Source: Escherichia phage Ge15
Sequence record: PP359696.1
Strand: one strand, 5' to 3'
Length of the DNA: 64,000 bases
In this document: positions 41,192 through 47,711 of the stretch, in pieces
Layout: every line of letters starts with the position of its first letter
How positions within the stretch are numbered: position 1 is the first letter of the stretch
The notes under the pieces: generated by a model
The model's input: the letters and a program-made list of their open reading frames with translations, nothing else
What the model was told of the DNA's origin: nothing
Database searches by the model: none
Position numbers and translations under genes: made by a program

Positions 41192-41557
41192 ATGAACTAC
41201 ATCAACTTTGAACGTAAATATGTTTCTAACGGTATTGCAGGTTCTATTGATACTATCTGCCTTTGGAAACATCAAAATGGATCAGTATGCGAAATTGAAC
41301 AGTATATGACTCCTAACTACGTTTATATGCGATTTGAAAATGGCATCACGGTTTCAATCACGAAAGAAGGTTCTTCTTTTAAAATCGCTTTAGATGATGA
41401 TTTTCGTCAACGCGATTTAGGGACTCATCCTTGCTGGAATGGCGTCAATCGTAAGCTTCTGGTTAAAACTTGGATTCGTCATATTTTGAGTAACAGAGCT
41501 AAACCTGAGCATCTTGAAGCAATCTTTGATGTAGTTCTTAACGAATTTGATATTTAA
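41192..41557 (+). CDS. hypothetical protein
   Basis: 121-aa ORF with RBS ggag. Confidence 0.55.
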   Translation: MNYINFERKYVSNGIAGSIDTICLWKHQNGSVCEIEQYMTPNYVYMRFENGITVSITKEGSSFKIALDDDFRQRDLGTHPCWNGVNRKLLVKTWIRHILSNRAKPEHLEAIFDVVLNEFDI

Positions 41558-41567
41558 AATAAAATGA

Positions 41568-41581
41568 GGGGCTTCGGCCCC
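41568..41581 (+). terminator. hairpin ggggcttcggcccc
   Basis: GC stem with ttcg loop. Confidence 0.5.
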
Positions 41582-41598
41582 TTACTGAGGAAAATACT

Positions 41599-41886
41599 AT
41601 GTTTATGACTACTTATTTTGATACCCGTAAAAATTTCTGTGAAGTGGTTTTCTCAAAGGCGCCTAAAGACCTTCCTGCTCATTTGCAACCTACTAGTGAA
41701 TCGATTAAAAACTATGTTAATGTAGTCTGCCCTTTAGAGTTCCGTACAGTAAATGGGCGCGATACTTTAGCTATCACTAAACTTAATCGTGAAATTGACA
41801 TTGACCCTTCAATTGCGCGTGAAATTAACATTTCTGATATTGGCGGCGGTAATGTTAAATCGCATGGTTTTCAGATGAGGTTCTAA
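41599..41886 (+). CDS. hypothetical protein
   Basis: 95-aa ORF with RBS gagg. Confidence 0.5.
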   Translation: MFMTTYFDTRKNFCEVVFSKAPKDLPAHLQPTSESIKNYVNVVCPLEFRTVNGRDTLAITKLNREIDIDPSIAREINISDIGGGNVKSHGFQMRF

Positions 41887-42083
41887 TGAAATTCTTTTTG
41901 GGTCAAACTGTTGAATTAAAGGGAGTTGGTATACCTGGATTAATTTCTAAGGTTCTACCTCCATTTAAATGGAGTGGTATTCAAATAAAAGAGGCTTATA
42001 TTGTTTCCTGGGTAGATGGAAATGAAGACCTTCGTATGGGTGATGAATTATCTCCTATCTATGGATTAAAGGAATTAATATGA
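41886..42083 (+). CDS. hypothetical protein
   Basis: 65-aa ORF. Confidence 0.45.
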   Translation: MKFFLGQTVELKGVGIPGLISKVLPPFKWSGIQIKEAYIVSWVDGNEDLRMGDELSPIYGLKELI

Positions 42084-42286
42084 ATATAATTAATAAGATT
42101 TTTGGAATTCAGTACATTAAGGTTACATATAAAGTAACGTATAAAGGTCCGTATACCGATGAACATGAAGAGCCACAAGTTCAGTCTATTATATTAGAAA
42201 AGGACCCTAACTGGCCAGTTGAATTTCGTCTTCCTTGCTATGGTCATTGGGCTGATGTTGAAATTATAAGTATTGAAAATGTCTGA
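42080..42286 (+). CDS. hypothetical protein
   Basis: 68-aa ORF. Confidence 0.45.
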   Translation: MNIINKIFGIQYIKVTYKVTYKGPYTDEHEEPQVQSIILEKDPNWPVEFRLPCYGHWADVEIISIENV

Positions 42287-42737
42287 GTTAGAGATAAGAA
42301 GCAATTTTAGATGGCCATCATGTGCATTAAGTAATTTCGCCCAATGGCCTTTTGTTATGGATGGTATCCAATTTGGAGGTCTCGAAGGATTCCTCCAAGG
42401 ATGCAAGGTGAAAAATGTTGAACAACAGCGTCGTATATTTGGGTTATCCGGGCTTGCCGCCCAACAAGCTGGAAGGTCTTATGCTAGAGCTCAGGACCGT
42501 GGGACCCTCTTCTGGCTTGGAGTTCCGTTTTCAAGATACTCCCCAGCGTGGAAAGAATTATACACAAATGCATATTTTGAAGCAGCGTTCCAAAACAAGG
42601 GCTTTCGCGATGCATTACAAGCCTCGAAAGGAAAAGTTTTGAAGCACAGCATGGCTAGTGGTCTAACAAAAGATGATACAATACTAACCGAAGCTGAATT
42701 TATTGATGTGTTAAACCTATTAAGAGACTCTCTATGA
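42273..42737 (+). CDS. YbiA/NADAR (DUF1768)-like protein, 30.3-like
   Basis: motif SNFAQWPFVMDGIQFGGLEGFLQGCKV parallels YbiA FSNFAAWP..DG...SEHYFQAQK; locally higher GC. Confidence 0.6.
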   Translation: MKMSELEIRSNFRWPSCALSNFAQWPFVMDGIQFGGLEGFLQGCKVKNVEQQRRIFGLSGLAAQQAGRSYARAQDRGTLFWLGVPFSRYSPAWKELYTNAYFEAAFQNKGFRDALQASKGKVLKHSMASGLTKDDTILTEAEFIDVLNLLRDSL

Positions 42738-43597
42738 AGCCTACTATTTTGACTGATATTGATGGAGTATGTTTAAGCTGGCAATCAGGCCTTCCTTATT
42801 TTGCTCAGAAATATAATCTTCCGTTAGAACATATTTTAAAAATGATCCAAGATGAGAAATTTATTTCTCCGGGTAAACTCTTTAATTGTGATGAAGAACT
42901 TGGTGTCAAGTTAATTGAAAAATATAATCGATCAGATTTTATTCGTTATTTGTCTCCATATAAAGATGCACTGTGTGTAATTAACAAATTAAAAGAAGAT
43001 TATAATTTTGTAGCTGTTACAGCATTGGGTGATTCTATTGACGCTCTGTTGAATCGTCAATTTAATTTGAATGCTCTTTTTCCTGGTGCCTTCTCAGAAG
43101 TAATGATGTGTGGTCATGATTCTTCAAAAGAAGAGTTATTCAAAAAGGCAAAAGAGAAATATAACGTAATTTGTTATATTGACGATCTCGCTCACCATTG
43201 CGATCATGCGAGTGAAATATTAAATGTTCCTGTTTATTGGATGGCGCGAGGAGAGCGTGACAATATTCCAAAAACCGCTCAGCGAGTTTATACATGGAAT
43301 GATGTAGAAAATAAGCTTTTTTCGCCGAAGGAAAATAAAGAAAGTTTTGATAATGAAAAAGCTATAAAAGATGTAATTGAGAAGATGGTTAAAAACGATT
43401 CTTTTCGTTGGAACACTACCTGGAGAACTCCTGGATTTAATCCGTATAATCCATATTATACACATCCATATAATCCATATTATACACACCCGTATCATAT
43501 GAATCCATTCCATACGTGGAGTTATACTAAGCCTGGTGATGCAGGGTATTTTAATAGATTTACTAGTGGTGATAATATTTTCCAAGGAGCATTCTAA
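42734..43597 (+). CDS. HAD-like hydrolase with C-terminal Tyr/Pro/His-rich repeats, 30.2-like
   Basis: N-terminal ILTDIDGV (DxDG HAD motif I); C-terminal NPYNPYYTHPYNPYYTHPYHMNPFH repeats. Confidence 0.6.
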   Translation: MKPTILTDIDGVCLSWQSGLPYFAQKYNLPLEHILKMIQDEKFISPGKLFNCDEELGVKLIEKYNRSDFIRYLSPYKDALCVINKLKEDYNFVAVTALGDSIDALLNRQFNLNALFPGAFSEVMMCGHDSSKEELFKKAKEKYNVICYIDDLAHHCDHASEILNVPVYWMARGERDNIPKTAQRVYTWNDVENKLFSPKENKESFDNEKAIKDVIEKMVKNDSFRWNTTWRTPGFNPYNPYYTHPYNPYYTHPYHMNPFHTWSYTKPGDAGYFNRFTSGDNIFQGAF

Positions 43598-43644
43598 TGT
43601 TTGTCGTTCACACTATTTATGAAAATGAAGGTAATACTACACGT
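43232..43644 (+). repeat. 413-bp direct repeat, copy 1 (3' end of 30.2-like gene plus first 48 bp of 30.1-like gene)
   Basis: identical to 45617-46029 by direct comparison. Confidence 0.9.
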
Positions 43645-44017
43645 CCGTATAATCCATATTATACACATCCATATAATCCATAATTTAATCCGTATAATCC
43701 ATATTATACACATCCTATAAAAAATTAAAATTAACCACAATAAGCGAATTGATTAAAAATATTTATTGTTCATTATCCGTCAGTAATCATCCCGGGCAAA
43801 TGCCCGGGAATTATTCTAGGATTATTTTCTTTGTTAAAAAAGACAAACGGTATTAACTGATGTATTTACTATTTACCGCTCCCTGCAGGGGGGATTATCA
43901 GAATCCGCGGTTATTCATTATTTATATACATTCAATAAAAAAGTAACCTCATAAAAAATCCTGTACTCACAGGGTGATGCGGGATAACTGACGTAAGGAG
44001 TGCTGCAGGGATTTGAT
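43645..44017. other. left arm of inserted block: scrambled phage micro-repeats then unique AT-rich DNA with GC palindromes
   Basis: 43645-43680 repeats 43442-43477, 43684-43715 repeats 43436-43467; then cccgggcaaatgcccggg, ctgcagggggg, ccgcgg. Confidence 0.6.
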
Positions 44018-44108
44018 TAGACTGGCCCCCTGAATCTCCAGACAACCAATATCACTTAAATAAGTGATAGTCTTAATACTAGTTTTTAGACTAGTCATTG
44101 GAGAACAG

Positions 44109-44474
44109 ATGATTGATGTCTTAGGGCCGGAGAAACGCAGACGGCGTACCACACAGGAAAAGATCGCAATTGTTCAGCAGAGCTTTGAACCGGGGATGAC
44201 GGTCTCCCTCGTTGCCCGGCAACATGGTGTAGCAGCCAGCCAGTTATTTCTCTGGCGTAAGCAATACCAGGAAGGAAGTCTTACTGCTGTCGCCGCCGGA
44301 GAACAGGTTGTTCCTGCCTCTGAACTTGCTGCCGCCATGAAGCAGATTAAAGAACTCCAGCGCCTGCTCGGCAAGAAAACGATGGAAAATGAACTCCTCA
44401 AAGAAGCCGTTGAATATGGACGGGCAAAAAAGTGGATAGCGCACGCGCCCTTATTGCCCGGGGATGGGGAGTAA
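44109..44474 (+). CDS. insC: IS2 InsC (orfA, HTH regulator/transposase N-terminus)
   Basis: 121-aa [29 protein letters not shown]... with A6G slippery site at 44426-44432. Confidence 0.85.
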
Positions 44475-45143
44475 GCTTAGTCAGCCGTTGTCTCCGGGTG
44501 TGCCAAACGTGTTTACCGGATCATGCGCCAGAATGCGCTGTTGCTTGAGCGAAAACCTGCTGTACCGCCATCGAAACGGGCACATACAGGCAGAGTGGCC
44601 GTGAAAGAAAGCAATCAGCGATGGTGCTCTGACGGGTTCGAGTTCTGCTGTGATAACGGAGAGAGACTGCGTGTCACGTTCGCGCTGGACTGCTGTGATC
44701 GTGAGGCACTGCACTGGGCGGTCACTACCGGCGGCTTCAACAGTGAAACAGTACAGGACGTCATGCTGGGAGCGGTGGAACGCCGCTTCGGCAACGATCT
44801 TCCGTCGTCTCCAGTGGAGTGGCTGACGGATAATGGTTCATGCTACCGGGCTAATGAAACACGCCAGTTCGCCCGGATGTTGGGACTTGAACCGAAGAAC
44901 ACGGCGGTGCGGAGTCCGGAGAGTAACGGAATAGCAGAGAGCTTCGTGAAAACGATAAAGCGTGACTACATCAGTATCATGCCCAAACCAGACGGGTTAA
45001 CGGCAGCAAAGAACCTTGCAGAGGCGTTCGAGCATTATAACGAATGGCATCCGCATAGTGCGCTGGGTTATCGCTCGCCACGGGAATATCTGCGGCAGCG
45101 GGCTTGTAATGGGTTAAGTGATAACAGATGTCTGGAAATATAG
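44432..45143 (+). pseudogene. insD: IS2 insD (orfB transposase catalytic part), frame disrupted by internal deletion
   Basis: orfB reads [23 protein letters not shown] then shifts at about 44501; the downstream DDE region (44523-45143) is in another frame. Confidence 0.8.
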
Positions 45144-45367
45144 GGGCAAATCCAATAAACAATTGGAATTTACTTCCATTGATCTGTTTACTCAGTGGTT
45201 GTCACTTTTATCGAGAAAGGTTTGCAGAACGCGGGTTTTTTTATAAGGTTCCTGATGTACTGAGGGATTATTTATCAGCTATACCGCTGGAAATAAATGA
45301 AAAGGCACGATACAAACCCGGCATCGCTAACTATCACAATATCATCACATGTGGTTTTTCAACGTTG

Positions 45368-45616
45368 TTACCCTATATAAGGCACGGCACCATGACAAAT
45401 ACGGGTATTCGCGCCGATAACAACTTCACCTGCAGTTTCATCAATAATTACCTGGTCTGCAATCTGAATATTTTTCTCTTTAACATTAAGCTTCAGATAG
45501 TTTTTCAGTTCCTGTGACAGAAGGTTGGGAATAAGCGGTTGACGCTTCCACCAGTGCGGAATAGCGGGTGGGTTTGTCGCGCTGAGGTTCGCGTCCAGTA
45601 AAAAAGGCAATAAGTC
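45368..45616 (-). pseudogene. 3' fragment of a non-phage gene (C-terminal about 80 codons ending ...GANTRICHGAVPYIG)
   Basis: coding-like - strand frame ending at a stop at 45368-45370, truncated at the junction with phage repeat copy 2; higher GC than the phage. Confidence 0.5.
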
Positions 45617-46029
45617 GTTTATTGGATGGCGCGAGGAGAGCGTGACAATATTCCAAAAACCGCTCAGCGAGTTTATACATGGAATGATGTAGAAAATAAG
45701 CTTTTTTCGCCGAAGGAAAATAAAGAAAGTTTTGATAATGAAAAAGCTATAAAAGATGTAATTGAGAAGATGGTTAAAAACGATTCTTTTCGTTGGAACA
45801 CTACCTGGAGAACTCCTGGATTTAATCCGTATAATCCATATTATACACATCCATATAATCCATATTATACACACCCGTATCATATGAATCCATTCCATAC
45901 GTGGAGTTATACTAAGCCTGGTGATGCAGGGTATTTTAATAGATTTACTAGTGGTGATAATATTTTCCAAGGAGCATTCTAATGTTTGTCGTTCACACTA
46001 TTTATGAAAATGAAGGTAATACTACACGT
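45617..46029 (+). repeat. 413-bp direct repeat, copy 2
   Basis: identical to 43232-43644. Confidence 0.9.
45626..45982 (+). pseudogene. truncated duplicate of the 30.2-like gene 3' end (118 codons from internal Met)
   Basis: translation identical to the C-terminal 118 aa of the 42734-43597 product; upstream context is foreign. Confidence 0.6.
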
Positions 46030-46251
46030 GATTACGGTCACGTAAATCAATTTTTTAGATGCAATCCAGAATTCCGAGCTCAAAAAGACGAACGAATTTT
46101 TAAAAAATGTGTAGAGCAAGGTTTCATTTACGTCAAGCACTGGATGCAAGGAAATAAAGTTAGAACTACATATCATAAGTCTTTGCCTGAGCTTAATGAT
46201 GAATTGATTTATAATAGAGCTGTAAACCAAACTTTGAAGGATGAGCAATGA
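45982..46251 (+). CDS. hypothetical protein (30.1 position)
   Basis: 89-aa ORF; start overlaps the stop of the 30.2-like ORF (TAATG). Confidence 0.55.
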   Translation: MFVVHTIYENEGNTTRDYGHVNQFFRCNPEFRAQKDERIFKKCVEQGFIYVKHWMQGNKVRTTYHKSLPELNDELIYNRAVNQTLKDEQ

Positions 46252-47711
46252 TTCTTAAAATTCTGAATGAAATAGCATCTATTGGATCAACTAAACAGAA
46301 GCAAGCAATTCTTGAAAAGAATAAAGATAATGAATTGCTTAAACGGGTATATCGTCTGACTTATTCTCGTGGGTTACAGTATTATATCAAGAAATGGCCT
46401 AAACCTGGTATTGCTACCCAGAGTTTTGGAATGCTGACTATTACCGATATGCTTGACTTCATTGAATTCACGTTAGCTACTCGGAAATTGACCGGAAATG
46501 CTGCAATTGAGGAATTGACTGGATATATCACCGATGGTAAAAAGGATGATGTTGAAGTTTTGCGTCGAGTGATGATGCGAGACCTTGAATGCGGTGCTTC
46601 AGTATCTATTGCAAACAAAGTTTGGCCAGGTTTAATTCCTGAACAACCTCAAATGCTGGCAAGTTCTTATGATGAAAAGGGCATTAGTAAGAATATCAAA
46701 TTTCCAGCCTTTGCACAGTTAAAAGCAGATGGAGCCCGGTGTTTTGCTGAAGTTAGAGGCGATGAATTAGATGATGTTCGTCTTTTATCACGAGCTGGTA
46801 ATGAATATCTAGGATTAGATCTTCTTAAGGAAGAATTAATCAAAATGACTGCTGAAGCCCGCCAGATTCATCCAGAAGGTGTGTTAATTGATGGCGAATT
46901 GGTATACCATGAGCAAGTTAAAAAGGAACCAGAAGGCCTAGATTTTCTTTTTGATGCTTATCCTGAAATTAGTAAAGCTAAAGAATTCGCCGAAGTAGCG
47001 GAATCTCGTACTGCTTCTAATGGAATCGCCAATAAATCCTTAAAAGGAACCATTTCCGAAAAAGAAGCCAAATGCATGAAGTTTCAGGTCTGGGATTATG
47101 TCCCGTTGGTAGAAATATACGGTCTTCCGGCGTTTCGTTTAAAATATGATGTACGTTTTTCTAAACTAGAACAAATGACATCAGGATATGATAAAGTAAT
47201 TTTAATTGAAAACCAGGTAGTAAATAACCTAGATGAAGCTAAGGTAATTTATAAAAAATATATTGACCAAGGTCTTGAAGGTATTATTCTCAAAAATACC
47301 GATGGATTGTGGGAAAATGCTCGTTCAAAAAATCTCTATAAATTTAAAGAAGTAATTGATGTTGATTTAAAAATTGTAGGAATTTATCCTCACCGTAAAG
47401 ACCCTACTAAAGCAGGTGGATTTATTCTTGAATCAGAGTGTGGAAAAATTAAAGTAAATGCTGGTTCAGGCTTAAAAGATAAAGCCGGTGTAAAATCACA
47501 TGAACTTGACCGTACTCGCATTATGGAAAACCAAAATTATTATATTGGAAAAATTCTAGAGTGCGAATGCAACGGTTGGCTAAAATCTGATGGCCGCACT
47601 GATTACGTAAAATTATTTCTTCCAATTGCGATTCGTTTACGTGAAGATAAAACTAAAGCTAATACATTCGAGGATGTATTTGGTGATTTTCATGAGGTAA
47701 CTGGTCTATGA
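46248..47711 (+). CDS. 30: ATP-dependent DNA ligase
   Basis: 487-aa ORF near-identical to T4 DNA ligase from MILKILNEIASIGSTKQKQAIL...; adenylation lysine motif region present. Confidence 0.95.
   Translation: MILKILNEIASIGSTKQKQAILEKNKDNELLKRVYRLTYSRGLQYYIKKWPKPGIATQSFGMLTITDMLDFIEFTLATRKLTGNAAIEELTGYITDGKKDDVEVLRRVMMRDLECGASVSIANKVWPGLIPEQPQMLASSYDEKGISKNIKFPAFAQLKADGARCFAEVRGDELDDVRLLSRAGNEYLGLDLLKEELIKMTAEARQIHPEGVLIDGELVYHEQVKKEPEGLDFLFDAYPEISKAKEFAEVAESRTASNGIANKSLKGTISEKEAKCMKFQVWDYVPLVEIYGLPAFRLKYDVRFSKLEQMTSGYDKVILIENQVVNNLDEAKVIYKKYIDQGLEGIILKNTDGLWENARSKNLYKFKEVIDVDLKIVGIYPHRKDPTKAGGFILESECGKIKVNAGSGLKDKAGVKSHELDRTRIMENQNYYIGKILECECNGWLKSDGRTDYVKLFLPIAIRLREDKTKANTFEDVFGDFHEVTGL

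Follow-up and report, generated by a model that had tools for sequence, protein, structure and literature searches.

The question raised by this locus is whether a small gene of a T4-like phage encodes an enzyme that counters a host defence based on ADP-ribosylation of DNA. The analysed stretch of DNA, called here the window, comprises 64,000 nucleotides of Escherichia phage Ge15 (PP359696.1) and is a segment of a Tequatrovirus (T4-like) genome. About 700 phage records matched its positions 41500-47000, and the best match was that of Escherichia phage sutha (98.9%). A sequence-only reading had placed the 30.3-like gene at 42273-42737 and proposed that its product is related to YbiA. The open reading frame at these positions was confirmed. 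The start was corrected, as TTG at 42273 is only the first possible start of a mechanically listed ORF; the likely start codon is ATG at 42279, which agrees with the T4 annotation of the gene (459 nt). The gene and its borders are as follows:

42279-42737, + strand: gene 30.3 (adfN), coding sequence of 152 codons plus stop; the predicted function is that of a NADAR-fold DNA ADP-ribosylglycohydrolase.
42279-42286, + strand: overlap of the 30.4 stop codon and the 30.3 start codon, ATGTCTGA, read from the sequence and the ORF ends.
42734-42737, + strand: ATGA, in which the 30.2 start codon overlaps the 30.3 stop codon, from the sequence and the ORF coordinates; the layout in T4 is identical.

The stop-start overlap between 30.4 and 30.3 suggests that these genes may be translationally coupled. 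The gene order, 30.6-30.5-30.4-30.3-30.2, is as in T4. Gene 30.3 lies in the early block, with rIII/31 on one side and the DNA ligase gene (gene 30) on the other, and the order here matches both T4 and sutha. The rIII/31-to-ligase position was also found in the phages KARL-1, phiAS5 and Phi1, and the slot is shared across Straboviridae.

The product of 30.3 (152 aa) was identical to T4 gp30.3 (NP_049816) at 150 of 152 positions (99%). The two substitutions, I104F and I125M, both recur in many other Tequatrovirus isolates, such as sutha; residues 104 and 125 are neither catalytic nor invariant. An identical protein is encoded by phage phiC600P9, and 67 phage records contain the protein at an identity of at least 99%. 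In Pfam, Phage_30_3 (PF08010) was matched over the whole profile (positions 1-138 of 138) with an E value of 8.6e-70 and a score of 233.4 bits, the gathering cut-off being 36 bits. The protein also matched PHROG 652; the PADLOC and NCBIfam searches gave no match. The window gene is the full-length Tequatrovirus orthologue of T4 30.3, now named adfN (anti-DarT factor NADAR), and we are highly confident that it encodes an anti-DarTG1 guanine-ADPr hydrolase. With the use of tblastn, homologues were detected in 1510 phage records, in 617 of them at an identity of at least 95%. Members of the family are not confined to Straboviridae: examples are those of Ralstonia phage RSP15, from the Ackermannviridae, and of an Acinetobacter phage record of 68.9 kb (PP798982.1). 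Most of the 1510 records label the homologue as a 'hypothetical protein', and these annotations could be updated.

The kinship to YbiA was analysed with the YbiA sequence taken from the MG1655 chromosome and with an alignment of 58 homologues of the 30.3 protein (A1). BLASTP of the 30.3 protein against E. coli K-12 YbiA gave 19 identities in 56 positions with an E value of 9e-6 for this single comparison, over the following motif:

42330-42410, + strand: NADAR core motif SNFAQWPFVMDGIQFGGLEGFLQGCKV, residues 18-44, which holds the catalytic E36 and K43 and is aligned to YbiA FSNFAAWPIKVDGKTWPTSEHYFQAQKF.

When the A1 profile was searched against all PDB sequences, YbiA (2b3w) was the sole match (E 0.0055). 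This match was confined to the motif, with the profile string SNFA..F..DG...mEGFLQslKf aligned to SNFAAWPIKVDGKTWPTSEHYFQAQKF of YbiA. Comparison of the A1 family with YbiA by hhalign gave a probability of 93.2% and an E value of 3e-7 over 91 columns. The Pfam NADAR family (PF08719) was matched individually by 23 of the 58 homologues, with a best E value of 1.5e-7, and several homologues are named 'YbiA (DUF1768 family)' by JGI. The window protein alone gave no NADAR match in Pfam at E <= 1 and nothing significant among the PDB sequences, where 3rjz appeared at chance level (E 0.82); the link to YbiA therefore needs profile or structural methods. The YbiA/NADAR (DUF1768) signature claimed by the sequence-only reading was confirmed by BLASTP, the family profile, hhalign and the Pfam matches of the homologues. 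That reading had named the lack of a significant HMM or structural match to DUF1768/NADAR as the observation that would speak against it, and an HMM match was found, for the homologues in PF08719 and for the family with hhalign. The 30.3 protein has the NADAR alpha+beta fold in a small single domain, which begins at about residue 3 of 152 in the structure model. Genuine remote homology to NADAR/YbiA and the right biology were thus recognisable from the raw sequence.

The residues S18, N19, F20, E36, G37, F38 and Q40 were invariant across the 58 homologues in A1. E36 and K43 align to Glu and Lys of YbiA as the conserved catalytic pair of the E-x(6)-K motif, and the substitutions E36A and K43A each impair AdfN-T4 (PMC11825919). 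The catalytic residues and the elements at the C-terminus are located as follows:

42384-42386, + strand: Glu36, codon GAA, catalytic; read from the sequence and invariant in A1.
42405-42407, + strand: Lys43, codon AAG, catalytic; conserved in at least 90% of the 58 homologues, with Arg in some distant phages.
42645-42647, + strand: His123, codon CAC, in the last beta-strand; invariant in the 58 homologues.
42690-42731, + strand: C-terminal helix, residues 138-151; a helix in the model, intact and identical to T4.

The residue in the last strand splits the NADARs into those with His (phage gp30.3), Glu (YbiA) and Asp (DarT-associated BC4488) (PMC11125620, PMC11543638). The hhalign alignment ends at K122 of the window protein and V124 of YbiA, which places H123 in register with E125 of YbiA; the modelled strand (residues 120-122) stops just before H123. 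By its His123, the 30.3 protein is assigned from sequence to the phage gp30.3 subfamily of NADARs. The C-terminal helix is needed for full activity, which is reduced by truncation, and in the RB69 allele a frameshift removes this helix and leaves the protein inactive (PMC11825919). In the window protein, residues 126-152 are identical to T4 and the RB69-type frameshift is absent. Because of the 99% identity and the intact catalytic residues, we infer that the F104/M125 allele acts like the T4 protein. The phage carries an intact and presumably active adfN allele, and we predict that it forms plaques on hosts with DarTG1.

For phage biology, gp30.3/AdfN is already a characterised anti-DarTG1 counter-defence enzyme; the NADAR and anti-DarT interpretation of the gene has been published and is not new. 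The protein was classed years earlier as a phage NADAR subfamily. Schuller et al. (2023) reported that guanine ADP-ribosylation catalysed by DarT1 is reversed by NADARs (PMC11543638). A study published in Toxins in 2024 found that T4 gp30.3 hydrolyses guanine-ADPr in vitro and does not hydrolyse thymine-ADPr, and that uninfected E. coli with DarT1 is not rescued by gp30.3/AdfN-T4 (PMC11125620). Johannesman et al. (2025) mapped the resistance of T2 and T4 to DarTG1 to 30.3, renamed it adfN, and found it necessary and sufficient for this resistance (PMC11825919). Deletion of adfN made T2 and T4 sensitive to DarTG1, and its expression rescued RB69; the rescue was weakened by E36A, K43A and truncation of the C-terminus (PMC11825919). 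The purified AdfN stripped ADP-ribose from DNA and did not bind DarT1. It was specific for DarTG1 and did not counter DarTG2, and AdfN-T4 was fully effective only in T-even infection, with phages outside the T-even group partly rescued (PMC11825919). The candidate role that had been proposed from the sequence, counter-defence against DarT-type toxins by reversal of ADP-ribosylation of DNA bases, has thus been demonstrated experimentally for the T4 protein gp30.3 (99% identity to the window protein).

In the proposed mechanism, the host DarTG1 would sense the infection, and the toxin DarT1 would ADP-ribosylate guanine bases of the phage DNA and thereby block replication. AdfN, encoded by an early gene of the rIII-to-ligase block, would cut the N-glycosidic link between ADP-ribose and guanine by means of E36, K43 and H123, so that normal DNA would be restored and replication could proceed. 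The target of AdfN is the lesion, with no binding of the toxin, and the thymine-ADP-ribose made by DarT2 is not a substrate. Because uninfected cells are not rescued and phages outside the T-even group are rescued only in part, a phage cofactor or further specificity is involved in the action of AdfN-T4.

The window protein was compared with the known proteins of similar sequence or role. It shares with AdfN-T4 the length, the neighbours, E36, K43 and H123, and the C-terminal helix. DarG1, the DarT1-associated NADAR antitoxin of the BC4488 subfamily (E. coli C7; Geobacter lovleyi, 8bat), has Asp in the last strand, whereas the window protein has His. The DarG1 gene lies beside darT1 and its product has an N-terminal extension, and both of these features are missing from the window gene; no ART domain is adjacent to 30.3, the neighbours being the phage genes 30.4 and 30.2. 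In uninfected cells, DarG1 cannot be replaced by AdfN-T4. E. coli YbiA (2b3w; PF08719, NADAR/DUF1768) has Glu in the last strand, in contrast to His123 of the window protein. Its gene belongs to a chromosomal operon under LexA control; the protein has been linked to N-glycosidase activity on riboflavin intermediates and gives no protection from DarT1 in vivo. The NADAR of Phytophthora nicotianae (8bau, complex with ADP-ribose) is eukaryotic, shows 19% identity, and has E125 where AdfN has H123. The other T-even anti-DarT factor, AdfA (gp61.2), counters the same defence as AdfN but is unrelated to it in sequence; AdfA binds DarT1, whereas AdfN is a DNA-repairing enzyme that does not bind the toxin.

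Several other functions were weighed against that of a guanine-ADPr hydrolase. It is extremely improbable that 30.3 encodes a YbiA-type housekeeping N-glycosidase acting on riboflavin-pathway intermediates and not on DNA adducts: the last-strand Glu that defines the YbiA subfamily is replaced by the invariant His, T4 gp30.3 acts on guanine-ADPr in DNA and has an anti-DarTG1 phenotype, and riboflavin genes are absent nearby. Another conceivable role would be to keep the ADP-ribosyltransferases of the phage itself (Alt, ModA, ModB) in check by undoing off-target modification. In T4, sutha and KARL-1, the early block that holds 30.3 also contains alt, about 3 kb further downstream, and co-expression of NADARs and ARTs in T4-like phages has been noted (PMC9503650). 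However, the targets of Alt and Mod are protein arginines, ModB attaches RNA, and none of them forms guanine N2 adducts, whereas the NADARs tested to date are specific for guanine-ADPr; we consider this role very unlikely. Soluble immune signals derived from ADP-ribose, or ADP-ribosylated RNA, could be the main or additional targets beyond DNA modified by DarT1. Such targets were proposed for phage NADARs on contextual grounds (PMC9503650), the authors of the AdfN study speculate on further defences that ADP-ribosylate DNA or RNA (PMC11825919), and the family, with its 1510 phage records, occurs very widely among large myoviruses that infect many hosts. The DarTG1 phenotype alone, however, accounts for the retention of the gene in coliphages, and targets of this kind are considered unlikely.

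A speculative candidate for the phage factor that AdfN needs is the product of its neighbour, which is located directly downstream:

42734-43597, + strand: gene 30.2, encoding 287 aa, with the HAD-like sequence ILTDIDGV at the N-terminus.

At its N-terminus, gp30.2 carries a DxDGV motif, which is characteristic of phosphatases of the HAD type. In PHROG it matched polynucleotide kinase weakly (E 0.0012); the searches against Pfam, NCBIfam and the PDB sequences gave no match. Its C-terminal tail of NPY/THPY repeats differs in length from that of T4 (287 vs 278 aa for the proteins). That the T-even factor required by AdfN is the coupled neighbour gp30.2, or that AdfN has a second substrate (ADP-ribosylated RNA or a soluble ADPr signal), is quite unlikely. 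A homologue of 30.2 is adjacent or close to 30.3 in Acinetobacter phage KARL-1 and Aeromonas phage phiAS5, and was not found within 3 kb of 30.3 in four other distant phages. A strict linkage between 30.2 and 30.3 was rejected; as 30.2 is near 30.3 in only two of the six distant phages, the linkage is partial and the idea of a partner is speculative.

The sequence-only reading had also noted that the gene is richer in GC than its neighbours and had taken this as a sign of horizontal origin. The first part was correct. Among the window's 88 phage ORFs with a length of at least 60 aa, 30.3 ranked first for GC (42.7%, against a mean of 34.8% with sd 3.1) and third for GC3. As a sign of horizontal origin, this excess is weak, and as evidence of recent transfer it was rejected, because the homologues in six distant phages have a GC content (0.36-0.46) that differs little from that of the loci in which they lie, and the gene occupies a conserved syntenic slot. 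The GC excess fits an old acquisition combined with amino-acid composition; Johannesman et al. proposed an old acquisition of adfN from a DarG1-like ancestor (PMC11825919).

The gene had further been described as lying directly next to the insertion site. This was not the case: the intact gene 30.2 lies in between, and the foreign DNA, which starts at 43645, is 908 bp downstream of the 30.3 stop codon. The insertion is characterised by the following features:

43645-45616: insert of 1972 bp, absent from sutha and T4.
43232-43644 and 45617-46029: direct duplication of 413 bp, covering the 3' end of 30.2 and the 5' end of 30.1, which flanks the insert.

Both the rank of 30.3 as the GC-richest ORF in the window and the presence of this E. 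coli-derived insert at such a distance would favour a recent horizontal acquisition of 30.3 tied to the insertion. Against it stand the homologues in the 1510 phage records, with the GC of the distant ones close to that of their own loci, the separation of the insert from 30.3 by 30.2, and the same syntenic place of 30.3 in the insert-free genomes of T4, sutha, Dhakavirus and Lazarusvirus. The synteny in these insert-free relatives already refutes the link to the recent insertion, and we give this explanation practically no credence. A functional tie between the insertion and 30.3 was rejected as well, since 30.2 lies between them, 30.2 and 30.1 are intact, and the relatives that lack the insert carry the same 30.3. 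The insertion thus has no evident bearing on 30.3.

The insert itself is a mosaic of E. coli K-12 pieces that are not contiguous. From the left, the first components are two extra partial copies of the 30.2 repeat. They are followed by 237 bp that adjoin a tyrosine recombinase gene, an IS2 that lacks 193 bp internally, about 227 bp from the flank of another IS2 copy (OrgA/MxiK locus) and, at the end of the insert, 233 bp from the yaiX/yaiP side of a third copy. Despite the duplication, one intact copy each of 30.2 and 30.1 is present. A simple transposition of IS2 was rejected as the origin of this patchwork; it is possible that the insert is an assembly chimera formed through the IS2 repeat (contamination with host reads) or a product of complex recombination. 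The two additional copies of the 44-nt TCCGTATAATCCATATTATACACATCC... motif, both of them partial (95% and 75%), are located at 43644-43732, just inside the left edge of the insert, and this motif encodes the NPYNPYYTHPY repeats of the gp30.2 C-terminus. At 43790-43809 (+ strand), in the part derived from E. coli, we observed a strong GC-rich hairpin with a T-rich tail behind it (TCCCGGGCAAATGCCCGGGA). This element resembles a terminator, and its orientation is such that transcription running on from 30.2 in the direction of 30.1 and the ligase gene would be stopped.

A second reading frame is present within 30.3:

42415-42642, + strand: 30.3', an alternative-frame ORF of 75 codons inside 30.3, annotated in T4.

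In the distant homologues, the corresponding frame is not always open. It is open in the window, in sutha and in two Dhakavirus phages, the 30.3 protein of which is about 86% identical.
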